The notes under the pieces: model-generated
Database searches by the model: none
What the model was told of the DNA's origin: nothing
What the model saw: only the letters and a program-made list of their open reading frames with translations
Part shown: positions 8,321 to 45,451 of the stretch, piece after piece
Layout of the letters: each line of letters starts with the position of its first letter
Position numbering within the stretch: position 1 is the stretch's first letter
Translations under genes and position numbers: made by a program
Source of the DNA: Klebsiella phage FKP3
Sequence record: PP895363.1
DNA: 64,000 nt
Direction: 5' to 3' (one strand)

Positions 8321-8606
8321 AATGCTAACCTTTTCAGCTTAGGCGGTTCGCCTATCTCCCCGCCTTGATATGAATATTAGACCCTTTGGATCTGCCTGTC
8401 AACTACTTTTTTACGCTGCTTTCGATACTAACCACAAGGTAAAACCGATAACTACCCACAATGGAACCGAAAGGATTAGTGCATTGATAATACCAGTGAA
8501 AAAACAGTTTTCTTTCTTGATTAACATAATCTATCCTCTTTGGTGTCGGCATCATTGCCGCCCTATGTGGTACATTATGCGCCCTCCCTGGGCGCTTGTC
8601 AATCCC

Positions 8607-30919: not shown

Positions 30920-30986
30920 GGGTTGATTTTCATAGGAGAGGTTGATATACTTCTCCTACACTTTAAAGAGAAAGAAGGAGAAATAC

Positions 30987-32147
30987 ATGTTCACACAATT
31001 TGGTAGTCAAATCTTCCTGCGTCAGAAGTCTGGTATTGATATCGACGTAATCCCAGCGGGTACTTATGGTATTGGTGTTACCCAGCATGGCGAGTGGTTC
31101 CTTTACCCTAAAAACGATATGGAAGTACCAAGTGTAACCTACGGTGATACCGACGATAAATCTGATCGTATTATCAAAACGTTCCTGAGCCGTCAAGGTA
31201 AGAACACTGGTATCCTTCTTGAAGGTACTAAAGGCAGCGGTAAAACTCTGCAAGCAAAAATGCTCTCTGTAGCGCTGCGTAAGATCGGTATCCCTACCAT
31301 CTCCATCGGTAGCCCGTTCAACGGTGAAGATTTTATCAACTTCATGTCTAAGATCAAGCAACCAGTTATGGTGATGGTTGATGAATTTGATAAGCTGTAT
31401 GCCGAGAAAGAGCATCAGGACGGTCTGCTTACTCTGTTGGATGGTGTAGGTGGCTATAACAAACTGTTCGTTCTGACTAAGAACGATGGTTATGTGTCTG
31501 AATTTCTGCGTAACCGACCAAGCCGTATCTTCTATAGCTTCAGCTATAAGAAACTGCCTAAGTCCACGCTGGATGATTACTTAGCTAAAAACTTGGAAAA
31601 CAAAGCGTTCGTGGGTGACTTTGAAACCCTGTACAACCTGTCCTCTGATCTGAACTTCGACGTTGTTCAGTCCCTGGTTGAAGAACTGAATCGTTATCCT
31701 GACGATAAATTTACCGATGCACTGAACCTGATGGGTATTACCATCAATGATGGCGGTACTCGTTCTGCGAAGGAAATTGTAACCTTCAAGGTGAACGGTG
31801 TTGAGCGTAAGGATGACATTACGGACGAGTACGAACTTTACGAGCTGGCTCCGCAGCGTCTGTTCGCTGGCCGCACGTTTGACTTCCGTGTTAAACACCA
31901 CAAAGGTAAGGCGCGTCTGCCGGAAATGGAAAACATTACTCTCGATATCTACGATGACGAGACGGAAGATTGGCACTGGGATTCTGACCTGTTCACCATC
32001 TCTTACAACGAGCAAAATGTTAAGAGCATGGGCGTAGATGGCTTCCACTTCATGTTCAAAGAAGGTGAGAATGTCATCGAACTGGTTATTAAAACAAAAG
32101 AGCAGAAAAGCTACACTGACTACGCTTTTCAGGGTCGTAGCTACTAA
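30987..32147 (+). CDS. AAA-family ATPase (paralog of 13069..14193)
   Basis: GTKGSGKT Walker A, MVDEFD Walker B; colinear similarity to minus-strand paralog; start moved to ATG after AAGGAG. Confidence 0.65.
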   Translation: MFTQFGSQIFLRQKSGIDIDVIPAGTYGIGVTQHGEWFLYPKNDMEVPSVTYGDTDDKSDRIIKTFLSRQGKNTGILLEGTKGSGKTLQAKMLSVALRKIGIPTISIGSPFNGEDFINFMSKIKQPVMVMVDEFDKLYAEKEHQDGLLTLLDGVGGYNKLFVLTKNDGYVSEFLRNRPSRIFYSFSYKKLPKSTLDDYLAKNLENKAFVGDFETLYNLSSDLNFDVVQSLVEELNRYPDDKFTDALNLMGITINDGGTRSAKEIVTFKVNGVERKDDITDEYELYELAPQRLFAGRTFDFRVKHHKGKARLPEMENITLDIYDDETEDWHWDSDLFTISYNEQNVKSMGVDGFHFMFKEGENVIELVIKTKEQKSYTDYAFQGRSY

Positions 32148-33006: not shown

Positions 33007-33666
33007 ATGACAATCAAACACATCTCTTTTGACGTATGGAATACTTTGATTACTGCAAATCCTTGGTACAGTGAAATTCGTACTGAAATAATTGCAAAAT
33101 ATGCAAATGTAACTGATCGTGAAGCAGGTACAATGTATAGGAAAGTAAAGAAATATTTAGACCAAAACGCAGAAAAAGGTATTTGTAGTTCTACCTCTAC
33201 TGCTTGGCATGTTTTAGGTAAAACTTTAAACATGGAACTAAAAGCAATTGCTGAGATGCAATATATGTGTGAACAGGCTTTTATTGCTAATCCACCAGAT
33301 TTAAATGGAGACTTAATTGCTCAATTGATGTATCTGAGTTTTAACTATGAATTAAGTATTAAAAGCAATACTAACTTTATCTCAGGTAGAATCTTATCTC
33401 AGACTGTAGACTTTGATAGAATGCCTTGGTGGAGTTTTATGCATTTCTCGGACGAACATCTACTTTGTAAGCCTGACATTTTATTCTTTGCTAAAACTCT
33501 GCTTTCTAGTAAGCTATCTAGCCTAGCAAACTATGAAATTTTGCATATTGGAGACAGTGAAATTTATGATGGGAAGTGTGTTGATTTAGGGTTTAAGTTT
33601 TGTCATATTAAAAACCCACAAGACTTATTAGAGAAACTTGAAAAAGGAGAAATCATTAATGCGTAA
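33007..33666 (+). CDS. HAD-superfamily hydrolase-like protein
   Basis: N-terminal hhhFDVWNTL (motif I with Asp nucleophile, as in DxYGTL haloacid dehalogenases) and IGDSEIYDG (motif IV). Confidence 0.45.
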   Translation: MTIKHISFDVWNTLITANPWYSEIRTEIIAKYANVTDREAGTMYRKVKKYLDQNAEKGICSSTSTAWHVLGKTLNMELKAIAEMQYMCEQAFIANPPDLNGDLIAQLMYLSFNYELSIKSNTNFISGRILSQTVDFDRMPWWSFMHFSDEHLLCKPDILFFAKTLLSSKLSSLANYEILHIGDSEIYDGKCVDLGFKFCHIKNPQDLLEKLEKGEIINA

Positions 33667-34495
33667 TCAAACTCAACACTTTGCCCATACTTTCTCTACC
33701 TTAGAGAATGCCGGTTTCAATGTAGCAGATTATTCGCGGCTGAAATTCGGTAGTAATCAAGCAGCGAAGCGTATGGGGCGCATTCTTGCAGAAAGCTTCT
33801 TTAAAGCCCACTGGAGCCGTCTACTACATAACCAGTTTGTGGTAATACCTTCACCATATAACTACGTTAAAAACGCTGCTACGTTGCTCTCAGAGCATTT
33901 TGTAGATCATCTTAACCATTTGGTAGCTGTGAACAGTAATCATGGCAAAGCTGTGGAGTGGGATATCATTCATCGTAAGGTGAGTTATATCAATGATTAT
34001 GGCTTCCTCAGTAAGGAAGACCGCAAAGCCCTGATTGACGGGGATACTTTCTCGATCAACAAAGATTTCTGGGGAAACAAAAACCTGATCTTCATCGATG
34101 ATGTGAATATTACGGGAACACACGAAGATAAACTTATTGAAATTCTCAATGAAGAAGGAATTACTAATGACACATTCTTCCTCTACTTCGCCAAGTATAA
34201 TGGTACTGAGGCCAACACAGAAGCGGCACTGAATTTCAGTGACATTAACACTATTTCTGCTTTCGTGCAGATGATTAAAGATGAGCCTGATGCTGAGTGT
34301 TTGGTTCGTCCAATCAAATACCTAATGAGCCAGCCAGAAGTGACCTTTAAGGTAGCACTGAGCCAACTTCCACTCTCTTACGTTGAAGCGTTATATTTTG
34401 GTTGTTTGGCTGAGGGTTATAACGGTATCGGGAAGTATGAAGAGAATTTTGAATTCCTAAAACATTTCTTTGAAAGCAACATCTTGAATAAGTAA
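33659..34495 (+). CDS. type I phosphoribosyltransferase (PRTase)-fold protein
   Basis: PRPP-binding signature LIFIDDVNITGTHEDK; overlaps HAD gene end by 8 nt. Confidence 0.6.
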   Translation: MRNQTQHFAHTFSTLENAGFNVADYSRLKFGSNQAAKRMGRILAESFFKAHWSRLLHNQFVVIPSPYNYVKNAATLLSEHFVDHLNHLVAVNSNHGKAVEWDIIHRKVSYINDYGFLSKEDRKALIDGDTFSINKDFWGNKNLIFIDDVNITGTHEDKLIEILNEEGITNDTFFLYFAKYNGTEANTEAALNFSDINTISAFVQMIKDEPDAECLVRPIKYLMSQPEVTFKVALSQLPLSYVEALYFGCLAEGYNGIGKYEENFEFLKHFFESNILNK

Positions 34496-34515: not shown

Positions 34516-35169
34516 ATGATAAAGGTACATGGCGTAGGTGTTAATGATAGTTTAACGCCTGTCACTAAGAATGCATTTATAGCAGGTAAGTGGAAGCAGG
34601 TGTGGGCTTGCCCCTACTATATGCGATGGAAAGATTTATTACGTAGATGTTATAGTTTACCCGATAATCATAAACATTTTATGGTTTATAAGGACTGCTC
34701 TGTAACACAAGAGTGGCTTATTTTCTCTAATTTCAAGGCTTGGATGAGTGACAAGGATTTAACATTATGCTTAGATAAAGATATTCTTGTGCTAGGAAAT
34801 AAAATTTACTCCCCTACGACTTGTGTTATGATCCCCAATTACGTAAACTGTTTATTAACAGACAGTAGAAAACGTCGTGGCACTTATCCGTTAGGTGTAT
34901 CTTTAAAAAAGAAAAAGAAATCTACAAATACTGACAGGTATCAAGCATATTGCCATACATTAGATAAAGTGGTATACTTGGGCTACCATGATTCTCCTAT
35001 AGAAGCTCATAAAGCTTGGCAAAAACAAAAGATTCTCTCAATAGAGAAGACTATAGAGCAATATGAAAAAGAATCTTATTGTGATAGTAGAGTTGTTGCG
35101 GCATTACAAAGAAGAATTGAAATATTAAACAATGATATTTTGAATGGAAATGAGACAATTAGGATTTAG
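34516..35169 (+). CDS. HNH-type homing endonuclease with AP2-like DNA-binding domain
   Basis: N-terminal Y..W..M..RC motif, LDKDI..GN..P..C nuclease-like region, C-terminal AP2-like GVS..YQAYCH..VYLGYHD. Confidence 0.4.
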   Translation: MIKVHGVGVNDSLTPVTKNAFIAGKWKQVWACPYYMRWKDLLRRCYSLPDNHKHFMVYKDCSVTQEWLIFSNFKAWMSDKDLTLCLDKDILVLGNKIYSPTTCVMIPNYVNCLLTDSRKRRGTYPLGVSLKKKKKSTNTDRYQAYCHTLDKVVYLGYHDSPIEAHKAWQKQKILSIEKTIEQYEKESYCDSRVVAALQRRIEILNNDILNGNETIRI

Positions 35170-35177: not shown

Positions 35178-35651
35178 GTGATAAAATACAAAATAGGTGA
35201 CCTATTGTTGGCACATGAGAAAGGGGAAGTGGACACTATAGCACACTGCGCCAACTGCTTTTGTACCTTCGGTGCTGGCATTGCACCAAAAATTAAAGCC
35301 AAATGGCCTGAAGTGTATGCCGCTGATTGTGCAACACAAAAGGGTGATCGCAAGAAACTGGGAACCTTTACTAAAGCTGTCGTGGAAGATGGGGAGTTTA
35401 CTATCTATAACTTATACGGACAGTATGGTTATAGTAAACGTGACTCTGGTATTCGTGACTTAGACTATGACGCTATCTTTGATGCATTGGACGCAATGGG
35501 TGATGATGTAATTGCATGTGGTGGGAAGACAGTAGGACTTCCTCTCATTGGTTGTGGATTAGCTGGCGGAAAGTGGTCTGTAGTTGAAGCTATGATTCAG
35601 GAGACACTCGTCGCCAAAGGTCTAGAAGTTACTATTTTTAAATTAAATTAG
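35178..35651 (+). CDS. macrodomain protein, TARG1/OARD1-like (ADP-ribose removal)
   Basis: GDLL...VDTIAHCANCFCTFGAGIA and GLPLIGCGLAGGKW..VEAMIQE align with the TARG1 motifs (GDLF..DSLAHCISEDCRMGAGIA; LSMPRIGCGLDRLQWENV); GTG start after GGAGG. Confidence 0.65.
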   Translation: MIKYKIGDLLLAHEKGEVDTIAHCANCFCTFGAGIAPKIKAKWPEVYAADCATQKGDRKKLGTFTKAVVEDGEFTIYNLYGQYGYSKRDSGIRDLDYDAIFDALDAMGDDVIACGGKTVGLPLIGCGLAGGKWSVVEAMIQETLVAKGLEVTIFKLN

Positions 35652-35659: not shown

Positions 35660-35878
35660 ATGGAAATTATTGCTGGGGTTGTAATGTTCTTAGCTATGGT
35701 GGTAGTAGCGTTCTTAATCTGCCTGATACCAACGTGGCTGGTGATGTTGGCGTACAACTATGTTGTCTCGCTCATGGGACATGTTAATTGGGAAGTTCCT
35801 GTAACGTTTTGGAGTGTGGTGTGTGTAGCAGTGATCTTTATCTCTCTTCGCCATATATTTGGAGGAACTCGTAAATGA
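35660..35878 (+). CDS. small membrane protein
   Basis: two TM helices. Confidence 0.45.
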   Translation: MEIIAGVVMFLAMVVVAFLICLIPTWLVMLAYNYVVSLMGHVNWEVPVTFWSVVCVAVIFISLRHIFGGTRK

Positions 35879-36117
35879 AACATATTAAAATCCGTGTTTT
35901 AAAAAGAAATTATGCATCTTTTCGAGATGTTACTGTAGGGAAAGTGTATGCAGCCTTCGTCTTAGACCCTTATGAAAATGTTCCTGAAGCTTATTGGGGT
36001 TATCCTGGGCAAAGAAACGATGATACGGCATCTCTGTGTTTTCGAGATGATGAGGAATATCCTTGTGCGTGTGGATACGATGCCACTGTAAACGAATGTT
36101 TTGAAATAGTAGAATAA
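35875..36117 (+). CDS. hypothetical protein
   Basis: ORF 80 aa. Confidence 0.4.
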   Translation: MKHIKIRVLKRNYASFRDVTVGKVYAAFVLDPYENVPEAYWGYPGQRNDDTASLCFRDDEEYPCACGYDATVNECFEIVE

Positions 36118-36198
36118 AAGCTTGCATTTTATAAAAAAGAGCGTATAGTTAGTTGCATAGAGGGAGAGACTGTCTCTCCCTTCAATAAAGGAGAAAAT

Positions 36199-37251
36199 AT
36201 GAATACTTTCAGCAAATTTTATAAGTGGCCTTCCATCTTTTTTGGAATAGCTTTGATTGCAGGTGCATGGATCGGATATGCAGAAGCGGGGATTACTGGT
36301 TTGATTAACGGGATGGTAGCAGTTGGTATTCTGTGTATTCTTGAAATCTCCCTGTCGTTTGATAACGCTGTACTTAATGCAAAGAAACTCCAAGATATGG
36401 AGCCTAAATGGCGAGACTGGTTTGTTAAGTGGGGTATGCTCATTGCAGTATTTGGTATGCGCTTAGTGTTGCCTATCCTTATTGTGTCTGTTCTAGGCGG
36501 GATGACACCGTGGAAAGCAGTGGATTTAGGTTTACATAATCCGGCAGAATACGCTTCTGTTCTACAAAGTAGTCATCATATTGTAGCAAGTTTCGGTGGT
36601 GCGTTCCTGATGATGGTTGCTCTTGAGTTCTTTTTAGACCATGAGAAAGACAACCACTGGTTCAAATGGATTGAATATCCAATCTCCCACATCGGTAAGA
36701 TTGGTATTGCAGCCGAAGCGGGTATTACAGCAGTTCTGATTCTTCTTGCAAGTCTGGGTGCGCATGACCACGAACGTGTAGTGTTCTGGATCTCTGGTGC
36801 AGCAGGTATTGGTTTGTTCGTAGCAATCCACTTCCTGAAAGAATACCTGGAGTCACATGATGAGAAAGCCTCTGCGGCAGCAGGTGCGGTAGTGAAGTCT
36901 GGTTTAGCTGGTGTGCTCTACCTTGAAGTTCTGGATGCATCCATGTCCTTCGACGGTCTGATTGCAGCATTCGCTATCACTCAATACTTCATCGTGATTA
37001 TGCTTGGTCTGGGCGTTGGTGCGTTCTTTGTGCGAGAAATGACTCTTCATGTTCTGGATTCAGGACATCTGGCAGAGTTCCGCTACTTGGAACACGGTGC
37101 GTTTTACGCAATCTTTGCCCTGGCAAGCATTATGCTCCTAAACTTCTTCTTTGAAGTTCCAGAGGTGGTAACTGGTTTGATGGGTGTAGCATTCTTAGGC
37201 TCTGCGGTGTATCACAGCCACATCCTGAATAAACGTGAAGCGACAGCTTAA
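36199..37251 (+). CDS. TerC-family / DUF475 integral membrane protein
   Basis: two internal repeats each with E(I/V)SLSFDN / LDASMSFDG motifs typical of TerC/DUF475; multiple TM helices. Confidence 0.6.
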   Translation: MNTFSKFYKWPSIFFGIALIAGAWIGYAEAGITGLINGMVAVGILCILEISLSFDNAVLNAKKLQDMEPKWRDWFVKWGMLIAVFGMRLVLPILIVSVLGGMTPWKAVDLGLHNPAEYASVLQSSHHIVASFGGAFLMMVALEFFLDHEKDNHWFKWIEYPISHIGKIGIAAEAGITAVLILLASLGAHDHERVVFWISGAAGIGLFVAIHFLKEYLESHDEKASAAAGAVVKSGLAGVLYLEVLDASMSFDGLIAAFAITQYFIVIMLGLGVGAFFVREMTLHVLDSGHLAEFRYLEHGAFYAIFALASIMLLNFFFEVPEVVTGLMGVAFLGSAVYHSHILNKREATA

Positions 37252-37258
37252 TCAAAAG

Positions 37259-37276
37259 AGCCTCCTTCGGGAGGCT
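37259..37276 (+). terminator. UUCG-tetraloop hairpin (agcctcc-ttcg-ggaggct) + ttctat
   Basis: read directly after stop of TerC-like gene. Confidence 0.45.
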
Positions 37277-37293
37277 TTCTATAGGAGAGAAAC

Positions 37294-37473
37294 ATGTATA
37301 CTTTGATTCTGATTTGGAGCATTGCAGCCAACTCAAACGGAGGTACGGAACATTTAACTGTCCCACACCTCACTTACCAAGAGTGTACGCAGCAAATTCG
37401 TAATTTTGAGGCAGGTAATGATAATCTATATCTGCGCTATAGTCAGTGCATTAATGAAGGAGCACAGCAGTGA
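37294..37473 (+). CDS. small hypothetical protein (59 aa)
   Basis: hand-found, AGGAGAGA RBS. Confidence 0.3.
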   Translation: MYTLILIWSIAANSNGGTEHLTVPHLTYQECTQQIRNFEAGNDNLYLRYSQCINEGAQQ

Positions 37474-37676
37474 AAATCCTGAAAGCAGTGTGGTTTGTGT
37501 TCGAAAGTATTTGTTTCGGTGTAGGTTTATTTATTTTAATTGTAGCATTGACAGCGGTAGTAAGTGGTGGTAGTATTAGCATCAGTAAAGACGAGAAGCC
37601 AGTTTTTTGCTACTCGTTAGATAACAATCAATGTATTAACACTTTAAGCGAGGAAACAAAACATGAACAAAACTAA
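37470..37676 (+). CDS. small membrane protein
   Basis: ORF 68 aa hydrophobic. Confidence 0.4.
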   Translation: MKILKAVWFVFESICFGVGLFILIVALTAVVSGGSISISKDEKPVFCYSLDNNQCINTLSEETKHEQN

Positions 37677-38226
37677 ACTGGTGATCGGTGCAATCATTAT
37701 CGGCCTAGGTGTTACAATGCTGAGCGCATGTGATGACGATGTTCCAGCACAAACCCAATACATCCCTGCGCCGCAGCAACAACAAGTGGATGAGCAGTAT
37801 GTTAACCAACAACCTCCACAAGTGATTCAGTCTGCTCCTGCGCCTGTTATCGTGCAGAGTGGCAGTCATGATTCCGGTGTTGGAGACTTTGCAACAGGTA
37901 TGATTTTAGGTCACATGATGTCTGGTGGTGGTAACAATGGCGGTGGTTATAGCAATAACTCTAGCCGTACCACGATCATCAATAACAACACTGTGGCTCA
38001 ACCACGCAGTAGCTACTCCTCAAATAGCCGTAGCTCTTATTCAACAAATAAGCAGGTGTATCAAAGCCAACCACGTTCAACGAGCACCCAAACGTATTCA
38101 CGTCCTACTATGAATACTAACAGTAGTTATACTACTAAAAAATCCTACTCTAGCCCACTAAGTTCTTCTCGTAGCTACAGTAGTTCTTCTAGCCGTAAAA
38201 GTTATAGCTCTAGTCGTCGTCGCTAA
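37663..38226 (+). CDS. lipoprotein with Ser/Tyr/Asn-rich low-complexity C-terminal half
   Basis: lipobox LSAC; repeats SYSSNSRSSYS..RSYSSSSSRKSYSSSRRR. Confidence 0.5.
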   Translation: MNKTKLVIGAIIIGLGVTMLSACDDDVPAQTQYIPAPQQQQVDEQYVNQQPPQVIQSAPAPVIVQSGSHDSGVGDFATGMILGHMMSGGGNNGGGYSNNSSRTTIINNNTVAQPRSSYSSNSRSSYSTNKQVYQSQPRSTSTQTYSRPTMNTNSSYTTKKSYSSPLSSSRSYSSSSSRKSYSSSRRR

Positions 38227-38238
38227 TAAGGAGGAAAC

Positions 38239-38478
38239 ATGTTTAATAATGCAAAGAAAGGTGATATCGCGGTAATGGTAGATACGGACTTTTCAGCACA
38301 CGGAGATAAAGATCAACTGGAGATTGTCCTAGTTGACGAAGAGGGTATCTACGTCTACGATCCGAATGACAGACTCCTTTTCGAACATGCCAGTGGTGTT
38401 GAATACAGCTTCTGTATTGACTTCAACGGTAAGTTGGCAGGACGTGAGCCAGCAATTAAAGAAATCATTCCGCAGTAA
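38239..38478 (+). CDS. hypothetical protein
   Basis: ORF 79 aa. Confidence 0.45.
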   Translation: MFNNAKKGDIAVMVDTDFSAHGDKDQLEIVLVDEEGIYVYDPNDRLLFEHASGVEYSFCIDFNGKLAGREPAIKEIIPQ

Positions 38479-39445
38479 GGTTGACTTTTGCTTAGGGATA
38501 CTTCATAGTGTCCCTTGTCAAGAGAAATAAATAAATGAAGGAGAAAGTATGAAACTTATTTTAGGTCGTGTGTACAATCTGAGCGGTTCCAGTTTTTCTA
38601 CACAAGTTTTAGAAGATAATAATAATCTGTTCTGGCTGGATCACATTGATCAGAGGATGAACGAGTGGCGTTTTAAAGGTTTGACTACAGGGGATTTTCA
38701 GTGGTCAAGCGCGGCTATGATCCGTGCTGGTGAAGCAGAAATTTTCTTGGTAGATGATAAACCGAAACGTGGTAAGCGTAAGAAAGGCCCATCTCGTAAA
38801 GCACCAAGTGTGAATAAGGCGACTATTCTGTTCATGAGCGGGGAAACCTACACTGTAAAAGGCTTTGTGTCCCTTGAAGCCACTGCTGAAAAAACTGTGT
38901 TTATTATGGAAGACACTTGGAAGGATACAGTAAATAGCCGTAATGGCGACTATTCTGTTCATGAGCGGGGAAACCTACACTGTAAAAGGCTTTGTGTCCC
39001 TTGAAGCCACTGCTGAAAAAACTGTGTTTATTATGGAAGACACTTGGAAGGATACAGTAAATAGCCGTAATGCAATCACTGTGTACAATGAGGATATTGC
39101 GCAGATAGATGTTCGTGGAATTAAGCATCAAGTGGTATTAGATATGGCTTTGAAAGATGAAGGCACGTTAGTGCTTCATTCTAAAGATATGCTAATATTT
39201 TTATCAGATCTAACTATTGCGGAATAAATAACAAAAGATGCATAGTACAAGAGATATTCTAAATTTATGGAAAACTACATTATGTAAATTTAAAGAAGAC
39301 TTTCCTGAATACGATGCCCTGCTAAAGGCCAACGGATGGCGAGCAGGTGTTAGAGAAAAAAGAAATAAATCTTTTGGTTGGGCAGATAATAGAAGTAAGT
39401 TAGTTATTATCAATTGGCATCTGCATAAAAACTCGGAAGAGCATA
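38446..39445. repeat. tandem duplication unit 1 (exactly 1000 bp)
   Basis: 38446-39445 identical to 39446-40445. Confidence 0.9.
38549..39227 (+). pseudogene. gene disrupted by internal 127-bp tandem duplication (two ORF fragments 38549..39004 and 38943..39227)
   Basis: 127-bp unit 38819-38945 repeated at 38946-39072 shifts frame; junction creates a new in-frame ATG for the C-terminal fragment. Confidence 0.6.
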
Positions 39446-39459
39446 GAGCCAGCAATTAA
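39238..39459 (+). pseudogene. truncated copy of SprT-like gene (N-terminal 70 codons) ending at duplication junction
   Basis: identical to first 208 nt of 40238..40816, then diverges at the 1000-bp repeat boundary. Confidence 0.6.
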
Positions 39460-40445
39460 AGAAATCATTCCGCAGTAAGGTTGACTTTTGCTTAGGGATA
39501 CTTCATAGTGTCCCTTGTCAAGAGAAATAAATAAATGAAGGAGAAAGTATGAAACTTATTTTAGGTCGTGTGTACAATCTGAGCGGTTCCAGTTTTTCTA
39601 CACAAGTTTTAGAAGATAATAATAATCTGTTCTGGCTGGATCACATTGATCAGAGGATGAACGAGTGGCGTTTTAAAGGTTTGACTACAGGGGATTTTCA
39701 GTGGTCAAGCGCGGCTATGATCCGTGCTGGTGAAGCAGAAATTTTCTTGGTAGATGATAAACCGAAACGTGGTAAGCGTAAGAAAGGCCCATCTCGTAAA
39801 GCACCAAGTGTGAATAAGGCGACTATTCTGTTCATGAGCGGGGAAACCTACACTGTAAAAGGCTTTGTGTCCCTTGAAGCCACTGCTGAAAAAACTGTGT
39901 TTATTATGGAAGACACTTGGAAGGATACAGTAAATAGCCGTAATGGCGACTATTCTGTTCATGAGCGGGGAAACCTACACTGTAAAAGGCTTTGTGTCCC
40001 TTGAAGCCACTGCTGAAAAAACTGTGTTTATTATGGAAGACACTTGGAAGGATACAGTAAATAGCCGTAATGCAATCACTGTGTACAATGAGGATATTGC
40101 GCAGATAGATGTTCGTGGAATTAAGCATCAAGTGGTATTAGATATGGCTTTGAAAGATGAAGGCACGTTAGTGCTTCATTCTAAAGATATGCTAATATTT
40201 TTATCAGATCTAACTATTGCGGAATAAATAACAAAAGATGCATAGTACAAGAGATATTCTAAATTTATGGAAAACTACATTATGTAAATTTAAAGAAGAC
40301 TTTCCTGAATACGATGCCCTGCTAAAGGCCAACGGATGGCGAGCAGGTGTTAGAGAAAAAAGAAATAAATCTTTTGGTTGGGCAGATAATAGAAGTAAGT
40401 TAGTTATTATCAATTGGCATCTGCATAAAAACTCGGAAGAGCATA
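39446..40445. repeat. tandem duplication unit 2 (exactly 1000 bp)
   Basis: exact copy of the preceding 1000 bp. Confidence 0.9.
39549..40227 (+). pseudogene. second copy of the 127-bp-duplication-disrupted gene
   Basis: identical to 38549..39227. Confidence 0.6.
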
Positions 40446-40816
40446 ACATTGTTGATACTATGCTACATGAGATAGCCCATGCAATAGATTTTTGTAAAAG
40501 AGGTAGATCTGATCATGGCGCTGCATGGAAAGCAATAGCGCAGGAAATAGGAGCTATTCCTAAAGCTGTATCAAAGCGTTCTGTTAAAACAGAATATCCT
40601 TGGGTAATGGCTCTCGTATCAGATGGCGAATTAAGATTTATCAGAGGGTATAATCGCCGTCCTTCTAGGCAAAAACCTAATAGTATAATGTGGGGAACCT
40701 ACCTTAGTAAAGATAAGGAAGGAACCATTGATAAAATTTGGTTATTGTCTTGGGAAGAATGGCTTAAGAAGTGTGATGCTATGGGGATCTCTCCCTACTA
40801 TGAAGACAGAAAATAA
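40238..40816 (+). CDS. SprT-like zinc metallopeptidase-domain protein
   Basis: HEIAH (HExxH) motif in TMLHEIAHAIDF context, about 190 aa. Confidence 0.5.
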   Translation: MHSTRDILNLWKTTLCKFKEDFPEYDALLKANGWRAGVREKRNKSFGWADNRSKLVIINWHLHKNSEEHNIVDTMLHEIAHAIDFCKRGRSDHGAAWKAIAQEIGAIPKAVSKRSVKTEYPWVMALVSDGELRFIRGYNRRPSRQKPNSIMWGTYLSKDKEGTIDKIWLLSWEEWLKKCDAMGISPYYEDRK

Positions 40817-40825
40817 GGAGGCAAC

Positions 40826-41923
40826 ATGTCTAGTCCATTTTTAACTGCTGTTAAAACAACTCCAAGCAAGAGTGCATTGGCTGCAAAAGAAGATACACGG
40901 TCGGCATTAGCCCCAACTGTCTTTGATTCTAGCCCTGTGTATGCGCCTGCTGTAGTAAAACCTGTTCCAGACCTCCCTGCAATGACTCGTAAAGAGATTG
41001 ATAATGTAGGTGCAGAGGCTGGATTAACTCTACGTAGTTTAAACAATGAAGTGCTGAAACATCAGCGTGGTAATCAGGGTGGAGAGATGAATGAACGTCT
41101 CACCGCTCTTATTAAACAAGCTAAACAATTAGACCCCAGCGCGATTAAACAATCGAAGGGTGTTGGCAAGTTCATCAAAAAGTTGATGGGTATGAAAGAA
41201 GACCTGTTTGCAGAGTATGATACTATTAATAATCGTATTGATGTTCTTGTCAAAGAACTGGAGGGCGATGTTAGAAAAGAAGAAGATTCTCTTGTTTATC
41301 TCGAAAAACTTAAAATGGCTATTGGACAATATGCATTAAGTTTAAATCGGGATGTAGAACTTTTGACAGATACCTATGAGAAAGAAGAAGCACGTTTCAA
41401 TATGCTACCAGAGGATCAGGTCGAAGAACGCCAAGCTGTGCGTGATACTTTAGACATTCTGGAGATCCGTATTGCCGACTTAAAAGCGCTGCGTCTTCTT
41501 TGTGTCCAAATGGGGCCACGTGTTAATAGTATGATCAAAGTAAGCGAAATGCTTATGCGATCTGCACGTAACATCGTGAACAATGTTATTCCAGCGTACT
41601 CTGCCAACTTCTCAATGTATATTGAGAGTTTGCGTCAGGCAGAAGCTGGTCAAACCCAAGCTAATGTATTGGATGAATTCCAAGTAGCGCTAAAAATGGG
41701 TAGTGATTTAGCAGCACAAAATATTATTACTGCAACTGAACTCTCTAATCGTCAAGTGCTGGATATTGAAACACTCCGTCACGATCAAGAAAATCTGGTA
41801 CGTATGCTGGAAGAAACAAACCGAATCAATACTGAAGCACGTGCTGCCCGTATTGAGTACATCAATGAAGTACAATCCCTAGAGGATGGGATGGTACAGA
41901 AAGTCAAAGCTGGTTTAGTCTAA
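40826..41923 (+). CDS. TelA-like (toxic anion resistance family) coiled-coil protein
   Basis: length, Ala/Pro/Ser-rich N-terminus followed by long helical Glu/Leu/Arg-rich region resembling TelA/YceH; context next to TerC/TerD genes; no motif check possible. Confidence 0.45.
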   Translation: MSSPFLTAVKTTPSKSALAAKEDTRSALAPTVFDSSPVYAPAVVKPVPDLPAMTRKEIDNVGAEAGLTLRSLNNEVLKHQRGNQGGEMNERLTALIKQAKQLDPSAIKQSKGVGKFIKKLMGMKEDLFAEYDTINNRIDVLVKELEGDVRKEEDSLVYLEKLKMAIGQYALSLNRDVELLTDTYEKEEARFNMLPEDQVEERQAVRDTLDILEIRIADLKALRLLCVQMGPRVNSMIKVSEMLMRSARNIVNNVIPAYSANFSMYIESLRQAEAGQTQANVLDEFQVALKMGSDLAAQNIITATELSNRQVLDIETLRHDQENLVRMLEETNRINTEARAARIEYINEVQSLEDGMVQKVKAGLV

Positions 41924-41932
41924 GGAGAAATT

Positions 41933-42133
41933 ATGCTTATTCGTGTATACAAAGGCAAAGACGCAATTTTAGTGAGATATGATGGGGAACTACGTGTAGC
42001 ACCTATGGGAGTATCTTGGTTAGGTAGGGGTTTTATCTCAATGGTCACAGATTTGAGACATTTATATTCTTATGACCCTATCACTGAAAAGCAGTTAGCA
42101 GGTCTAGAAATCCTCCTAGAGGAGGTGTGCTAA
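41933..42133 (+). CDS. hypothetical protein
   Basis: ORF 66 aa. Confidence 0.4.
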   Translation: MLIRVYKGKDAILVRYDGELRVAPMGVSWLGRGFISMVTDLRHLYSYDPITEKQLAGLEILLEEVC

Positions 42134-42348
42134 TGAAAGTAGCTATTCTTATTGAAGATTGTGGAGATGGGAGTTCTTGTCTTCGTTGGTTTAAAGACCT
42201 TGACTTAGCCGAGGCACTGGCGTATAGTGATGATTATTGCGAAGAATTCGGTGGTAGTGAAGGTACAACAGTGATTGAAGTTGGTGACGACTTTATCCCA
42301 CCTGGTGGTTTCGATGACAACTGTGAATGGGATATCACCGATGAATGA
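42127..42348 (+). CDS. small highly acidic protein
   Basis: about 30% Asp/Glu. Confidence 0.45.
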   Translation: MLMKVAILIEDCGDGSSCLRWFKDLDLAEALAYSDDYCEEFGGSEGTTVIEVGDDFIPPGGFDDNCEWDITDE

Positions 42349-42532
42349 TAAAATTGTCTTGACACGCCTTGAGTTAAAGACTATCATCGAAGACGCTTTC
42401 ATAGATGGTTGGAATACACAAGATAACGATTGGGCCTCTGCGGAGGCATATCTTGAACATCACAATGACTATGGTGATGAGTGTGAAACAACTATTGCAC
42501 TTAAAAACTTAATGGAGGGCAATAATGAGTGA
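42341..42532 (+). CDS. hypothetical protein (internal ATG start)
   Basis: in frame with track ORF 42275..42532. Confidence 0.35.
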   Translation: MNDKIVLTRLELKTIIEDAFIDGWNTQDNDWASAEAYLEHHNDYGDECETTIALKNLMEGNNE

Positions 42533-42687
42533 AGAATTTTTGACTTGGTTTGAACGATTTTATGAAAGTAAACCTTACTTTACAAAGGAAGAAAAAGAAG
42601 AGCTTAAGTTTCACACATGGTTTGCATGGCGCGATTCACGCCGTGCAGATGACTTAAAAGAAGTTGAAAAAGGAGATAAAGAATGAG
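42526..42687 (+). CDS. small hypothetical protein
   Basis: hand-found 53-aa ORF. Confidence 0.3.
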
Positions 42688-43477
42688 CGAAAAAATTAGT
42701 CTGGTTAAACGCCAAGAGAAACTCGTAATCAGCCTCAAAAAGAAAAAGATCGCACAGATCACCCTGCGTGTAGCATCTGCGCTGGATATCTCAGGTAGTA
42801 TGGGTAGTCTGTATCGTAATGGTACTGTAAGTGATTTTGTAGGTAAACTCTTACCGTTTGGTATGCAATTTGACGATAATGCTCAGATTGATATGTGGGC
42901 GTTTGACCACGGCTGTCGTGAGCTGCCTCCTGCAACAGCGTCTGTCTATGATGATTATGTAGGCAAGTGTATGCGTGGTATTTCAATCTCCGGTGGTACA
43001 GCCTATGCTCCAGTGATGCAAGAGATTTATGATGAGTATTTTGGTAAAGTACCTATGAAAACCGTCTCTCGTGAGATCGATATACAGGAAAAACGTCCTG
43101 TGAGTGGTTTCTTTGCTAAGCTGACAGGCAAAACCGAAACTGTAACTGTGAAGAAAACTATCACTGAACAAGTACCAGATACTTCTGTGCCAGTCGATAC
43201 AACCCCCGCTATGGTGTTCTTCCAGACAGATGGCGACAACTCTGATAAAGAAGCCGTGCGTAGCCTGCTTTCTCGTAACCGTGGCAAACCTATTTATTGG
43301 TTTATGGTGGGCGTAGGTCAGGAAAGCTTTAGCTTCCTGAAAGAACTCGCTCGTGATTACGATAACGTCGATTTTATTGGCGTAGATGACCTTGACCTTT
43401 CAGATGAAGAACTGTATGATAAGCTTCTGTCTGACGAATTTGGTCAGTGGGTTGAGAAAGTTGGTGCAAAAAGCTAA
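42683..43477 (+). CDS. von Willebrand factor A (vWA) domain protein, TerY-like
   Basis: MIDAS motif LDISGSMGS near N-terminus. Confidence 0.55.
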   Translation: MSEKISLVKRQEKLVISLKKKKIAQITLRVASALDISGSMGSLYRNGTVSDFVGKLLPFGMQFDDNAQIDMWAFDHGCRELPPATASVYDDYVGKCMRGISISGGTAYAPVMQEIYDEYFGKVPMKTVSREIDIQEKRPVSGFFAKLTGKTETVTVKKTITEQVPDTSVPVDTTPAMVFFQTDGDNSDKEAVRSLLSRNRGKPIYWFMVGVGQESFSFLKELARDYDNVDFIGVDDLDLSDEELYDKLLSDEFGQWVEKVGAKS

Positions 43478-43571
43478 AATATTTCTTGACACTTAGAAAG
43501 AAAAGAGTAGAATAAGTTTCACAAAGGGGAGAGATGGCTCTCCCCAGTAAACAAAATAAAGGAGAATATAC

Positions 43572-44174
43572 ATGTCTGAGAAAATTTCCCTCAAAAAAGG
43601 TTCTAGCGAAAAGATTTCCCTGAAGAAAATTGCTCCGCTGCTTAAAGAAATCCGTCTGGAGTTTAGCTGGAAATCTGGTGGTAAACTTGATCTGGACGTT
43701 AGTGCGCTGATTTGCCGTCATAACGCTGCTGGCAACCCAGAGATGCTTTCTGCACGTCATTTAGTGTGCTATGGTAATAAGTTCGACCCAGAGCGTTCTA
43801 CTTTTGCAGGTGCAGATGTTCGTGATGGTACTGGGGAAATGGAACAAATCGACATTACTCTGGATAAAATCTCTGCAAATGCTAATGAGGTAGCTTTTGT
43901 GATTACTATCGACGACGATACTGGTCGTGCTCGCTTAGGTAATGCTACCGAAGGTATGCTGAAAATCTTCGACGCAGAACGTAACGTTGAGATCCTGGAC
44001 TTTGACTTCCTTGCACCGGAAGTTGCTGGTAATACTATCTGCCACGTAGCATCTCTTGTTCGTGAAGACGGTGAATGGAAACTGAAAGCATATGGGGTTG
44101 GTAAAGCTGGTATGGATATTTGCGATGTAGTTGCTGCCTTTGGTGGCGATCCTGCCTGGTACGAATGCCCGTAA
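43572..44174 (+). CDS. terD: TerD-family protein
   Basis: colinear with E. coli TerD: MSxxISLKKG, LDLDxSAL, GTGEMEQIDITLDKIS...VAFVITIDD, GEWKLKAYGVGKAG. Confidence 0.8.
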   Translation: MSEKISLKKGSSEKISLKKIAPLLKEIRLEFSWKSGGKLDLDVSALICRHNAAGNPEMLSARHLVCYGNKFDPERSTFAGADVRDGTGEMEQIDITLDKISANANEVAFVITIDDDTGRARLGNATEGMLKIFDAERNVEILDFDFLAPEVAGNTICHVASLVREDGEWKLKAYGVGKAGMDICDVVAAFGGDPAWYECP

Positions 44175-44235
44175 TCACTATCTATATCGGAGGGTGAAAA
44201 CCCTCCATTTGTAATAAAGAAAAGAGGAGAATAAG

Positions 44236-44850
44236 ATGAGCGCAATTTCTAAACTACAAGATTTGTTCAACAGCAATTTTGCAGTTGATGTAGATTATAA
44301 CGAAGCAAATAGCCGAAAAGTTATTGACCTATTTAAAGTAGTACGGGATCTGGGAGTCGATTACCGCATTGACGAAGCATTTAAAGATACCTGGATGACC
44401 GACGAAGCAAACGATGCTTATTGTATTAATAACTGGCAATATTTTGGTATTCTTAACGGTAATACCTTCCTCAGCGATTGTGCTTGGAGCGATGATAAAC
44501 CCCTGACAGTAAAAGAGTTTGAGGATATTGTTGTTGCAGCGCAAGGTGTCACTTCAGTTTTATCAGCAAAGGATACACTAGGTGGAGATCTGGTGATCAG
44601 TGGTGGTGTAGTTGTTGTTAATTATAAGGATGGTAGTAGTTATCATCTTGAACACGACGGTAAAGCTACACTCAATGTAGCAAGTCGTGTAGTTACCACT
44701 GAGCGTACCTTTCTTAAAGACGGTCAGCCAGCTTACGAGCGCGTGATTGTTAAACTGGAAAGTTTGGAAAGTGTTCAGAGTGATAATCTTAAACTTACTG
44801 TCAACGAAGACGGAACTAAAGTGGATTTCACTACTACTTTCACACTGTAG
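44236..44850 (+). CDS. hypothetical protein
   Basis: ORF 204 aa. Confidence 0.5.
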   Translation: MSAISKLQDLFNSNFAVDVDYNEANSRKVIDLFKVVRDLGVDYRIDEAFKDTWMTDEANDAYCINNWQYFGILNGNTFLSDCAWSDDKPLTVKEFEDIVVAAQGVTSVLSAKDTLGGDLVISGGVVVVNYKDGSSYHLEHDGKATLNVASRVVTTERTFLKDGQPAYERVIVKLESLESVQSDNLKLTVNEDGTKVDFTTTFTL

Positions 44851-44935: not shown

Positions 44936-45451
44936 TTGCTAATACGAAACTTTGTAACAATTGCGTTACTATCATTAACTGCTTTTACATTTACACCTGT
45001 AATCGGCATTGCCGAAGCTGCAAACGTAAAGACCGCTAAAGTAGTTCACAAATGTACAAAGCGAGATACGAAAGAAAATCTTTTAGCTTGTGCGATGTAT
45101 GCCGAAAGCCGAGGGCAAGGTAAAAAAGGAATGGCGGCGGTTGGCAATGTGGTCTTGAATCGCGTTAATGACCCACAATTCCCTAAAACTGTAAAAGATG
45201 TTCTGTTCCAACCCGGACAGTTTTCTTATACCAATAAAGGGGCTTTCAATGTAGTAGAAAAAGATAAATGGCAAGAAGCAAAACATATTGCAGACCGTTT
45301 ACTTTACTTAAATCGTAATTTCCCTGAAGCTAGAGATGCTACGGACTTTACTAAAGGAGCAAAATACTTTAAGAAAAAAAGTATTCGTGTCCATTGGGAA
45401 AAAGATATGACTTTAGTGTACAGATATAAAGAACATCAATTTTACCGGTAG
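44936..45451 (+). CDS. SleB-like cell-wall hydrolase (Hydrolase_2 family) with signal peptide
   Basis: LLACAMYAESRGQGKKGMAAVGNVVLNRVNDPQFPKTVKDVLFQPGQFS is the SleB catalytic-domain signature; TTG start after AAAGGAGG. Confidence 0.6.
   Translation: MLIRNFVTIALLSLTAFTFTPVIGIAEAANVKTAKVVHKCTKRDTKENLLACAMYAESRGQGKKGMAAVGNVVLNRVNDPQFPKTVKDVLFQPGQFSYTNKGAFNVVEKDKWQEAKHIADRLLYLNRNFPEARDATDFTKGAKYFKKKSIRVHWEKDMTLVYRYKEHQFYR

Follow-up and report, generated by a model that had tools for sequence, protein, structure and literature searches.

The stretch of DNA analyzed here, referred to as the window, comprises 64,000 nucleotides of Klebsiella phage FKP3 (PP895363.1). Its + strand replication/early-middle gene block contains a set of genes related to bacterial tellurite-resistance (Ter) systems, arranged in the conserved order HAD-like hydrolase, PRTase_3, TerC-superfamily membrane protein (here DUF475), TelA, vWA-TerF-like protein and TerD, with variable small ORFs occupying the gaps between these conserved genes. 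The features of the locus are as follows.

33007..33666, + strand: HAD-like hydrolase, ~219 aa from an internal ATG (phrog_14393 'hydrolase', E 3e-91)
33659..34495, + strand: PRTase_3, a ComF-like phosphoribosyltransferase (Pfam PF15610, E 1.1e-41, full length)
36199..37251, + strand: DUF475 membrane protein of the TerC superfamily, 350 aa (Pfam PF04332, E 2.4e-92, full length; TerC PF03741, E 3.8e-16)
37663..38226, + strand: Q/S/N-rich lipoprotein (lipobox LSAC with Asp at +2, read from the sequence; phrog_21570, E 4e-45)
38446..40445, no strand: tandem duplication of two exact 1000-bp copies (38446-39445 and 39446-40445, 100% identical)
40238..40816, + strand: SprT-like zinc metallopeptidase with an HEIAH motif (Pfam PF10263, E 1e-11), directly upstream of TelA
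40826..41923, + strand: TelA-family protein, 365 aa, long helical, coiled-coil type (Pfam PF05816, E 4.1e-33)
42683..43477, + strand: vWA-TerF-like protein, 264 aa (Pfam PF10138, E 1.4e-41)
43572..44174, + strand: TerD-domain protein, 200 aa (Pfam PF02342, E 1e-27)
44936..45451, + strand: cell-wall hydrolase, Hydrolase_2, SleB-like (Pfam PF07486, E 4e-22), with a hydrophobic N-terminal signal-like segment

An earlier, sequence-only reading had proposed that this lytic phage possesses a Ter-like set of four genes, encoding DUF475/TerC, TelA, vWA and TerD proteins, and had suggested profile searches as a check. This identification proved correct: all four genes lie on the + strand at the positions it gave, and each matches its Pfam family above the curated cut-off and far beyond chance. 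It is nearly certain that they form a Ter module and that the phage is a virulent myovirus of Klebsiella belonging to the Stephanstirmvirinae (phi92/phAPEC8-like). Measured against terZABCDEF, some components are missing, since neither a TerB domain nor a TerY-type kinase/phosphatase pair was present among the scanned ORFs. The PADLOC defence models gave no match to any Ter protein. The cluster is best explained as a reduced, phage-resident form of the bacterial Ter membrane stress/phage-exclusion system.

The duplicated E(I/V)SLSFDN motif ascribed to the membrane protein was confirmed in its first copy (LEISLSFDN, residues 48-56), whereas the second (LDASMSFDG, residues 245-253) is degenerate rather than an exact copy. 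Key residues of the DUF475 signature are at least 95% conserved among the 119 homologues compared. The gene occupies the position at which the closest relatives encode a canonical TerC/Alx protein, and BLASTP detected no similarity between the DUF475 protein and the TerC found at the same position in Klebsiella phage KP13-26. This replacement is natural. The DUF475 protein of Klebsiella phage 05F01 is 82.6% identical to that of the window, a metagenome contig carries a 96% identical copy in the same context, and bacterial Ter loci likewise use DUF475.

The TelA alignment spans positions 13-330 of the 332-position Pfam model, and the protein also matches phrog_5890 'tellurite resistance' (E 6e-115); its AF2 model is all-helical, with low confidence. 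In the vWA-TerF-like protein, the expected MIDAS motif is readable as D-I-S-G-S (DxSxS) at residues 35-39, and comparison of the N-termini revealed that its first ~25 residues mimic those of TerD. The TerD-domain protein, read earlier as colinear with E. coli TerD, proved colinear with the solved Klebsiella pneumoniae TerD structure 2KXT (query residues 5-191 against 3-188, E 5e-16), and it also aligned with the solved structure 3IBZ. Its acidic Ca2+-binding loop is two residues shorter than that of 2KXT and retains four of the six acidic positions, so metal binding is not assured. Beside the TerD gene lie a sigma-70-like site (43486-43513, 11/12 matches) and a terminator-like hairpin (44189-44206), both consensus matches only.

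The Ter module reaches upstream to a Ter-linked pair of PRTase_3 and HAD-like genes, which adds to the known picture. The two genes overlap by 8 nt, with the mechanically defined HAD ORF beginning at a TTG at 32986. The HAD assignment is based on one PHROG match and sub-threshold NCBIfam matches (REG-2-like HAD-IA, E 3e-6, under the curated cut-off), the protein having no match in Pfam; motif I (FDVWNTL) can be read in its sequence, as can GDSxxxD, and orthologues adjoin the PRTase gene in phi92 (gp187), KP13-26, KP2025 and 05F01. The protein is a putative phosphoesterase of a Ter-linked metabolite module, in which PRTase_3 is the putative enzyme for synthesis of a nucleoside-like ligand. PRTase_3 also occurs in Rhizobium, Caulobacter and Brevundimonas phages, and phages of these genera recur among the matches to DUF475, vWA and/or TerD.

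Three further neighbors accompany the Ter genes. Between TelA and the TerC slot lies the Q/S/N-rich lipoprotein, a conserved companion with homologues in phi92 (gp180, annotated with a signal peptide; 43%), 05F01 (27%) and the metagenome contig L006 (31%); we infer that it belongs to the functional module. The SprT-like gene is a lineage-specific companion, shared with KP13-26 and KP2025 (97%) and 05F01 (48%), and was not found at the Ter locus of phi92, L004 or L006. The Hydrolase_2 gene is a conserved downstream neighbor rather than an established member of the Ter module, adjacent to the 3' side of TerD or one ORF away in KP13-26, KP2025, 05F01, phi92 (gp170) and L006.

The sequence-only reading had described the cluster as interleaved with an SprT-like peptidase, small acidic proteins and a tandem duplication, and hence as no clean operon. 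The peptidase and the small acidic ORFs are both present. The duplication is exact in the sequence as given but is most likely an assembly or circularisation (circular-wrap) artefact. Each 1000-bp copy contains a nested exact 127-bp tandem duplication (38818-38944 and 38945-39071, and again 1000 bp further on), with its junction at 499|501 of the unit. Together the repeats break a 180-aa ORF and double the 5' portion of SprT; once each repeat is reduced to one copy, the frame reads through as a single 180-aa ORF, as found in KP13-26, KP2025 (543 nt) and L008 (183 aa).

The window shares ~93% nucleotide identity with Klebsiella phages KP13-26, classified in the Stephanstirmvirinae, KP2025 and phi1_175008. 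The same genes occur in the same order in approximately 131-133 of 133 Stephanstirmvirinae records, the reference count being the records that carry the essential primase/helicase at an identity of at least 60%. Orthologues of TerD, TelA, vWA, PRTase_3 and TerC were each found in 131-133 records; identity to the window's protein reaches at least 60% in 131 phage records for both TelA and PRTase_3, at least 60% in 132 for vWA (including phi92 gp173, 70.1%) and at least 80% in 131 for TerD (including phi92 gp172, 80.8%). Gene order is retained from a compact DUF475-TelA-vWA-TerD-TerD operon (L004) to the dispersed versions of L006, phi92 and 05F01. TelA, vWA, TerD and PRTase_3 are under strong purifying selection, with dN/dS values of 0.074, 0.054, 0.061 and 0.083 (the last against KP13-26), respectively; the SprT-like gene gave 0.13. 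The earlier reading had considered that the genes might turn out to be core genes of a known phage group with an assigned structural role; they are indeed common, near-universal genes of the Stephanstirmvirinae, but none of them has an assigned structural role.

The synteny comparison that it had also suggested revealed the conserved order in related phages and a counterpart in bacteria. In phi92, the module comprises gp172 (TerD), gp173 (vWA), gp178 (TelA), gp182 (TerC), gp186 (PRTase) and gp187 (hydrolase), and orthologues in the same order, orientation and replication-region context are found in phAPEC8, KP13-26, KP2025, phi1_175008 and 05F01. Identities to the window are 77.9% for PRTase_3 and ~73.6% for TelA in phi92, and 89-100% within the Klebsiella clade, where, unlike in phi92, SprT adjoins TelA. 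Relative to these phages, the window differs in having one extra 217-aa ORF (34516-35169), the artefactual duplication, and DUF475 instead of canonical TerC, a feature shared among isolates by 05F01 only.

Among cellular systems, comparison was made with terZABCDEF of the IncHI2 plasmid R478, enterobacterial islands, and those Ter loci that include biosynthetic modules, reportedly described by Anantharaman, Iyer and Aravind in 2012. The locus of Novosphingobium sp. Leaf2 (TerD-x-DUF475-TerD-TerD-TerD/trypsin-PRTase_2-x-StiP/PELOTA-C-C lyase-AIM24, with TelA nearby) brings together TerD, a TerC-superfamily protein (DUF475), TelA and PRTases in one neighborhood, domain families that the window also encodes. 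Cellular loci encode several TerD paralogues, TerB, PRTase_1/PRTase_2, C-C lyase and AIM24; enterobacterial loci also contain TerA/Z/E/F, and an ATP-grasp enzyme is often present. The phage locus, in contrast, has one TerD, no TerB, only PRTase_3 and HAD, and interleaved phage ORFs. Its minimal combination of TerD, a TerC-family membrane protein and a TelA-like protein without TerB is also that of the Bacillus subtilis envelope-stress operon yceCDEFGH, which has TerD paralogues, lacks the vWA-TerF-like protein and the PRTase/HAD pair, and is cellular and sigma-factor-regulated.

The sequence-only reading was aware of no comparable phage-encoded arrangement, a claim that does not hold. The phi92 GenBank annotation lists gp172 as 'putative stress protein', gp178 as 'putative stress / toxic anion resistance protein' and gp182 as 'putative membrane bound tellurium resistance protein', and a table from 2015 names gp172, gp173 and gp178 as Ter proteins (PMC4690881). 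In Klebsiella phage phiKp34 (vB_KpnM_FBKp34), likewise a virulent myovirus (~141 kb), a terC, terF-vWA, terD and telA cluster was reported by Estrada Bonilla et al. 2021 (PMC8386662), who considered that it might serve an antiviral function. This cluster differs from the window in gene order (vWA gp131, TerD gp132/133, TelA gp135), in having two TerD genes and TerC (95.4% identical to that of KP13-26) rather than DUF475, and in a vWA protein only 39% identical. Ter systems were further described in jumbo 'and certain other related smaller tailed phages', where superinfection exclusion was proposed (Iyer et al. 2021, PMC7824862). Jumbo phages (Acinetobacter vB_AbaM_ME3, Caulobacter CcrColossus-type, Brevundimonas) encode the same families (TerD, TerC/DUF475, TerF-vWA and TelA), joined by PRTase and HAD in the fuller versions, with DUF475 as the membrane component in the Caulobacter phages and ME3; their proteins are only 21-45% identical to those of the window and belong to other lineages and genome sizes. 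The cluster was thus observed correctly, but it is conserved across the large lytic phages of the phi92/phAPEC8 group and had been published before; DUF475 in place of the canonical TerC of the closest relatives is an addition to that record. No experimental work on a phage Ter gene turned up in the searchable literature.

Section 3.4.10 of PMC7824862 sets out roles for PRTase/HAD, TerD, TerC, TelA and TerF-vWA and proposes that Ter is deployed by phages against superinfecting phages. Following this model, the DUF475/TerC protein would resemble an inner-membrane divalent-cation transporter, and would form a membrane-associated complex with Ca2+-binding-type TerD, MIDAS-bearing vWA and helical TelA, a physical association that we entirely infer; PRTase_3 and HAD would supply a nucleoside-like ligand. 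Such a complex could condition the envelope of the infected cell during infection, keeping out superinfecting phages as well as pore-forming colicins, in the manner of plasmid ter loci, and protecting the replicating phage. The phage inhibition and colicin resistance associated with plasmid R478, as cited in PMC8386662, and the Mn2+ exporter activity reported for an Alx/TerC-family protein (PMC10197570) speak for this exclusion model, which we favor only tentatively, at just under an even chance. Against it weigh the lack of a PADLOC match, the missing TerB and TerY-type pair among the scanned ORFs, the shortened TerD loop and the sub-threshold NCBIfam evidence for HAD.

A role in metal homeostasis is an unlikely alternative: DUF475/TerC, with TerD as Ca2+/metal-binding partner, would adjust Mn2+/Ca2+ or metalate exported proteins for the phage, without excluding competitors. 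In Bacillus, secreted enzymes are metalated by TerC proteins. The signature residues of the transporter show strict conservation, and one and the same slot can be filled by either of two non-orthologous TerC-superfamily proteins, which suggests that generic transport activity matters. The TerC/Alx family is reported to be linked to Mn2+ export (PMC10197570) and, in Klebsiella, to resistance against zinc and tellurite (PMC12054061), and Hydrolase_2, with its signal-like N-terminus, is a conserved neighbor. The signal-bearing hydrolase encoded just downstream would be an example of a client. However, this role leaves the strict co-conservation of TelA, vWA, TerD and PRTase_3/HAD unexplained, and no result ties any metal-dependent phage enzyme to the module.

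Somewhat less probable still is counter-defence, in which the module would neutralize host immunity by stabilizing the membrane against depolarizing or perforating abortive-infection effectors, or by disturbing the host's Ter system through decoy subunits or signal consumption. The sequence-only reading had suggested host-physiology manipulation or counter-defence, a proposal that the computed results neither favor nor rule against. Some neighboring genes resemble counter-defence candidates, a macro domain matching the PADLOC DarG model (5.5e-13) and a 201-aa protein matching AbiEi models (3e-13), yet neither is co-conserved with the Ter module: the AbiEi-like gene was not found in the fetched stretches of phi92 and 05F01, nor the macro gene in that of 05F01. 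Low identity to Klebsiella TerD (2KXT) is as expected of a long-adapted viral version, but none of the Ter proteins resembles a known anti-defence protein. In favor of counter-defence, plasmid ter loci are common in Klebsiella (PMC12054061, PMC8115787). Against it, the module is equally conserved in phages of E. coli K-12, which is not known to carry a ter operon. A passenger 'moron' conferring tellurite/xenobiotic resistance on the host in carrier states or pseudolysogeny, with no lytic-cycle role, appears highly improbable. PHROGs does class TelA and the membrane protein as 'moron, auxiliary metabolic gene and host takeover', and PMC7824862 mentions possible xenobiotic resistance in pseudolysogeny. 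Nevertheless, near-universal presence in a virulent subfamily (~131-133 of 133 records), a position inside the replication gene block, dN/dS values of 0.05-0.08 and a gene order retained across deep divergence fit a function in every infection rather than an occasional passenger.

Between 36199 and 44174, the ORF list agrees with the four + strand Ter-family genes claimed by the sequence-only reading, and Pfam supports every family concerned (TerD, TerC/DUF475, TelA and VWA). The scores of these proteins, and of the SprT-like protein encoded among them, lie far over the curated cut-offs. Both the observation and its annotation hold up.

Ter-family and SprT-like genes of the window
36199-37251, + strand: DUF475 (PF04332) protein, 350 aa; Pfam E 2.4e-92 over the full length, and 3.8e-16 to TerC (PF03741)
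40238-40816, + strand: SprT-like (PF10263) protein, 192 aa; Pfam E 1e-11
40826-41923, + strand: TelA (PF05816), 365 aa; Pfam E 4.1e-33
42683-43477, + strand: vWA-TerF-like (PF10138) protein, 264 aa; Pfam E 1.4e-41
43572-44174, + strand: TerD (PF02342), 200 aa; Pfam E 1e-27

The duplicated E(I/V)SLSFDN motif ascribed to the DUF475 protein holds for the first copy (LEISLSFDN), whereas the second is degenerate (LDASMSFDG); in either signature motif, the key residues reach at least 95% conservation in a set of 119 homologues. The vWA translation contains the expected DxSxS MIDAS motif as DISGS, and the SprT-like translation carries HExxH as HEIAH. TerD, previously noted as colinear with E. coli TerD, aligns end to end with Klebsiella pneumoniae TerD 2KXT (E 5e-16) and with Streptomyces 3IBZ. 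As defined in the work on 2KXT, the Ca2+-binding motifs of TerD are DxDxSA and a GDN(R/L)TG(E/A)GDGDDE loop. The window protein keeps the former as DLDVSA (DLDxSA), while its acidic loop, in the HMMER alignment with 2KXT, is two residues shorter and retains four of the six acidic positions.

The first ~25 residues of the vWA protein resemble the N-terminal strand pair of TerD (MSEKISLVKRQEKLVISLKK versus MSEKISLKKGSSEKISLKK; 42683-42760 against 43572-43650), and phi92, 05F01 and a pair of metagenome relatives show the same feature. This arrangement recalls TerF, in which TerD is fused to a vWA domain, and the TerD-like N-terminus may be what is left of a TerD-vWA fusion of the TerF type, or may serve as an interaction element. 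Homologue searches with TelA, using the single sequence and a profile, recovered just 30-35 proteins, every one at least 39% identical. An AF2 model of TelA based on a 23-sequence alignment is long and all-helical, with low confidence (mean pLDDT 61.6, pTM 0.45); Foldseek comparison of this model with the PDB returned nothing at E <= 1e-3, and a PDB sequence search with TelA gave no match. Resemblances of the model to BAR domains, designed bundles and AhlC/ClyA were generic long-helix matches (TM <= 0.33) and were set aside as uninformative, as was a weak, spurious PDB sequence match of the vWA protein.

Used as query, the 8-kb region matches the Klebsiella phages KP13-26, phi1_175008 and KP2025, whose genomes measure 144-150 kb, at ~93% nucleotide identity across 75-82% of its length, and the window primase/helicase is 99.8% identical to that of KP2025. 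The taxonomic assignment of KP13-26 and of the more distant isolate 05F01 is to Stephanstirmvirinae, the subfamily of virulent phages that includes phi92 and phAPEC8. The long + strand block that holds the Ter module is the replication region, and tail-fibre-like genes begin on the opposite strand after ~55.9 kb.

Replication genes of the + strand block
26528-28369, + strand: UvrD-type helicase
48034-49803, + strand: primase/helicase
50856-53435, + strand: family A DNA polymerase

No tRNA genes were found in the whole window, and positions 1-8600, unlike the remaining window, contain no ORF of at least 170 aa on either strand.

The extent of conservation was assessed by tblastn against 50,697 phage records, taking the essential primase/helicase as denominator.

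Phage records with a match at the identity indicated
Primase/helicase, at least 60% identity: 133 records
TerD, at least 80% identity: 131 records
TelA, at least 60% identity: 131 records
vWA-TerF-like protein, at least 60% identity: 132 records
PRTase_3, at least 60% identity: 131 records
TerC of the KP13-26 type, at least 60% identity: 133 records

Since 131-133 records carry the Ter genes against 133 with the primase/helicase, these genes are near-universal in Stephanstirmvirinae. At greater distance, homologues are carried by jumbo phages that infect Caulobacter, Brevundimonas, Acinetobacter, Rhizobium or E. coli/Klebsiella (PBECO4, RaK2). A synteny matrix built by tblastn against KP2025, KP13-26, 05F01, phi92 and two metagenome contigs, read together with annotation tables, gave the shared order HAD-PRTase, TerC slot (the position of the membrane-protein gene), TelA, vWA-TerD and Hydrolase_2, with the TerC slot, TelA, vWA and TerD in identical order in all relatives examined. 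Spacing differs: the 130-kb metagenome contig L004 has a compact DUF475-TelA-vWA-TerD-TerD operon, and in the metagenome phage contig L006 the Ter genes are dispersed, with unrelated cargo such as dTDP-sugar genes between them. The dN/dS values against KP13-26 (TelA 0.074, vWA 0.054, TerD 0.061, PRTase_3 0.083) indicate that these four are maintained functional genes.

Local identities vary within the region. TerD is 100% identical to its counterpart in phi1_175008 and 89% identical (nucleotide 81%, dS 1.24) to that of KP13-26, and a 180-aa ORF at 38549-40227, as reconstructed after collapsing the repeats there, is just 57-60% identical to relatives, with flanking genes at 97-100%. Judged by sequence, the region is mosaic. 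A 204-aa ORF at 44236-44850 was considered as a diverged second TerD, by comparison with L004 and phiKp34, and rejected for want of similarity to TerD; no homologue of it was found at the same position in 05F01, L004 or L006.

The supposition that such a phage-encoded arrangement was undescribed did not survive comparison with the phi92 annotation and with published phage Ter clusters. The phi92 record lists gp172 as 'putative stress protein', gp178 as 'putative stress / toxic anion resistance protein', gp182 as 'putative membrane bound tellurium resistance protein', gp186 as 'putative orotate phosphoribosyltransferase' and gp187 as 'putative hydrolase', and several GenBank records of the subfamily name 'TelA-like protein', 'TerD family protein', 'VWA domain-containing protein' and 'tellurium resistance protein TerC'. 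In 2015, an analysis of the Intesti cocktail counted gp172, gp173 and gp178 of phi92 among tellurium/tellurite resistance proteins (PMC4690881). Estrada Bonilla et al. discussed the Ter-like cluster of phiKp34 as possibly antiviral (PMC8386662), and Iyer et al. assigned roles to PRTase/HAD, TerD/TerB, TerC and TelA/TerF-vWA and proposed that phage Ter acts against superinfecting phages (PMC7824862). The cluster has therefore been annotated since the phi92 genome and treated in at least three papers; it is an already-published kind of system in an ordinary member of a well-sampled subfamily, and the central novelty claim fails. The same reading had named, as grounds for its refutation, common core genes of a known phage group with an assigned structural role; half of this applies, for these are common core genes of such a group, and no structural role is assigned to them. 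A search for literature on experiments with phage Ter genes, or on Ter as a modern 'defence system', found nothing relevant.

Compared with the Ter system sensu Anantharaman, Iyer and Aravind 2012 (terZABCDEF-type), the window contains TerD, a TerC-superfamily membrane protein, a MIDAS vWA and TelA. It differs from that type in TerB, of which no domain was found among the 47 window ORFs scanned against Pfam. A search of PADLOC-DB 2.0 at E <= 0.01 gave no match for DUF475, SprT, TelA, vWA, TerD, HAD or PRTase_3. By co-occurrence, the Ter cluster extends upstream to a predicted PRTase_3/HAD pair.

Further genes near the cluster
33007-33666: HAD-like hydrolase, overlapping the PRTase_3 gene by 8 nt; phrog_14393 'hydrolase' 3e-91
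33659-34495: PRTase_3 (PF15610), Pfam E 1.1e-41, 1.7 kb upstream of the DUF475 gene
37663-38226: Q/S-rich lipoprotein, conserved in most relatives
44936-45451: Hydrolase_2 cell-wall hydrolase, downstream of TerD, conserved in most relatives

The HAD call is based on the PHROG match together with NCBIfam HAD-IA matches below threshold. The pair is kept in place in phi92 (gp186/gp187), KP13-26, KP2025 and 05F01, and it also occurs in phages of Rhizobium, Caulobacter and Brevundimonas, hosts whose phages are likewise among the DUF475, vWA and/or TerD matches. In the published account of Ter systems, PRTases and HAD phosphoesterases make up the 'signal biosynthesis' arm (PMC7824862). Neither an ATP-grasp enzyme nor a C-C lyase nor AIM24 was found as a partner of the window Ter module. 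Full Ter biosynthetic modules also carry the first two of these enzymes.

Relative to the subfamily module, the window shares the backbone and gene order but differs in the TerC slot. Canonical TerC/Alx (PF03741, E 6e-41), the typical occupant, is present in KP13-26, KP2025, phi92 and ~130 others; the window has DUF475 instead, and BLASTP detected no significant similarity between its DUF475 protein and KP13-26 TerC. Homology to KP13-26 DNA restarts ~15 nt before the DUF475 stop codon, and the small ORF upstream of the DUF475 gene (35875-36117, 80 aa) is 47% identical, against 84-100% for flanking genes. This boundary and the diverged ORF together indicate a replaced cassette of ~1.4 kb, corresponding to 35875-37237 in the window and 4711-6015 in the compared stretch L002, within backbones otherwise 93-100% identical. 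The right-hand boundary adjoins a GC-rich hairpin at 37259-37276.

The DUF475 variant is natural. It recurs in isolate 05F01 (82.6% identity), in several phage-sized metagenome contigs (56-83%) and, as a 96% identical copy, in a 3.5-kb metagenome contig that reproduces the window order of an unannotated ORF, PRTase_3, two unannotated ORFs, DUF475 and a 59-aa ORF. Bacterial homologues begin at ~50% identity. Among them, Novosphingobium sp. Leaf2 encodes DUF475 within a classical Ter locus (TerD-x-DUF475-TerD-TerD-TerD/trypsin-PRTase_2-x-StiP/PELOTA-C-C lyase-AIM24, with TelA nearby), where it fills the TerC role, making DUF475 a recognised TerC-equivalent. Conversely, the TerC proteins of phiKp34 (FBKp34, MW394390.1) and KP13-26 (OP617743.1) are 95.4% identical, yet phiKp34 belongs to a different lineage, its vWA-TerF-like protein being only ~39% identical to that of the window/KP13-26 clade. 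The TerC slot has evidently been exchanged among co-infecting Klebsiella phages, and these identities suggest that terC recently moved horizontally between phage lineages with a common host. The TerC/DUF475 swap is a modest new detail, of which no discussion was found in the phage Ter papers examined.

The cluster had also been described as interleaved with a SprT-like peptidase, small acidic proteins and a tandem duplication. The peptidase and variable acidic ORFs are indeed present: SprT is restricted to the Klebsiella clade among the relatives compared in the tblastn matrix, the acidic ORFs vary between relatives, and a Pfam scan of the small interleaved ORFs matched no family. The duplication was judged a very probable artefact. 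Positions 38446-39445 equal 39446-40445 over exactly 1000 bp, and neither flank extends the repeat; each unit further contains one pair of exact 127-bp tandem copies (38818-38944/38945-39071 and 39818-39944/39945-40071), whose junction falls at 499|501, the centre of the unit. As 127 is not a multiple of three, the duplication shifts the reading frame of an ORF that KP13-26 and KP2025 (543 nt) and the compared stretch L008 (183 aa) carry intact. If one copy of each repeat is removed, a single ORF of 180 aa results, with one SprT gene after it. SPAdes uses 127 as its largest default k-mer, and its circular contigs finish with an overlap of length k. Closing a contig with this overlap untrimmed, padding it with ~500 bp taken from each end and wrapping it again would produce exactly such nested, centred repeats, so that an assembly or circularisation artefact is very probable for both duplications, and the window probably spans the ends of the assembled contig. 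On this reading, the duplication gave rise to the ORFs of 151, 94 and 73 aa in 38549-40227.

Following the published Ter model, TerC/DUF475, TerD, vWA and TelA would form a membrane-associated complex for which PRTase_3 and HAD would supply a nucleoside-like ligand, and the infected cell would resist superinfecting phages and membrane-attacking agents. The observed basis includes the domain set, the conserved DUF475 transporter signature and the intact vWA MIDAS. The proposed refractory cell would parallel what plasmid ter loci confer, namely phage inhibition and colicin resistance (PMC8386662), and agrees with the proposal of PMC7824862. Other roles were weighed against this proposal. Support of metal homeostasis is doubtful, and counter-defence, whether aimed at abortive-infection systems that act on the membrane or at the Ter system of the host itself, appears improbable. 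That the genes are a passenger resistance set is very improbable, given how poorly this idea fits their near-universal conservation in a virulent lineage and the strong purifying selection upon them.

We tentatively consider a further reading, less likely than not, in which the Ter module, including PRTase_3/HAD, is indispensable to the infection programme of the whole virulent subfamily, for example as a ligand-gated membrane/cation switch setting superinfection immunity or lysis timing. If this were true, the natural exchange would show TerC and DUF475 to be functionally interchangeable, DUF475 as an uncharacterised family would gain a defined role, and a tractable phage model would become available for Ter-system mechanism, a decades-old problem that takes in resistance to tellurite and colicins as well as inhibition of phages. 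Virulent coliphages and Klebsiella phages are easily handled, and their compact, strongly conserved Ter module offers a good experimental handle, with the TerC/DUF475 exchange as a ready-made complementation test. The remaining interest accordingly lies in Ter function, in this interchange and in the extension to the PRTase_3/HAD pair. Therapy cocktails also make use of such phages, and 'resistance' annotations then become a regulatory issue (PMC4690881).

Several neighbouring genes were recorded alongside the cluster. The product of 35178-35651 is a macro-domain protein (Pfam Macro 6.8e-5; PADLOC DarG model 5.5e-13 over the whole length), kept in KP13-26, KP2025 and phi92 and not found in the fetched 05F01 stretch; reversal of ADP-ribosylation, as counter-defence of the anti-DarT type, is a possible role of this protein. 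The 201-aa protein of 32400-33005 matches two PADLOC 'AbiEi' models near full length (3e-13 and 1.6e-10) and is 97% identical in KP13-26 and KP2025, with no counterpart found in the fetched phi92 and 05F01 stretches; its identification as a 2H phosphoesterase was rejected, because beside an HLTL motif the second motif is non-canonical and Pfam gave no match. Between PRTase_3 and the macro gene, a 217-aa ORF (34516-35169) matches no Pfam or NCBIfam family and has no counterpart in the seven loci compared; at this position KP2025 lacks an ORF and KP13-26 has one of 187 aa, of no detectable similarity. The 217-aa ORF probably came in as a mobile insertion and may be a gene of the homing-endonuclease type. 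Two AAA/nSTAND-like ATPase genes lie on opposite strands at 13069-14193 (-) and 30942-32147 (+), the latter corresponding to phi92 gp190, annotated 'putative ATPase or Zn metalloprotease'. Around TerD, consensus matching alone identified a near-consensus sigma-70-like site (43486-43513, TTGACA-16-TAGAAT) 59 nt upstream and a GC-rich hairpin with a weak T tract (44189-44206) 15 nt downstream; TerD might be an early gene with a transcription unit of its own.
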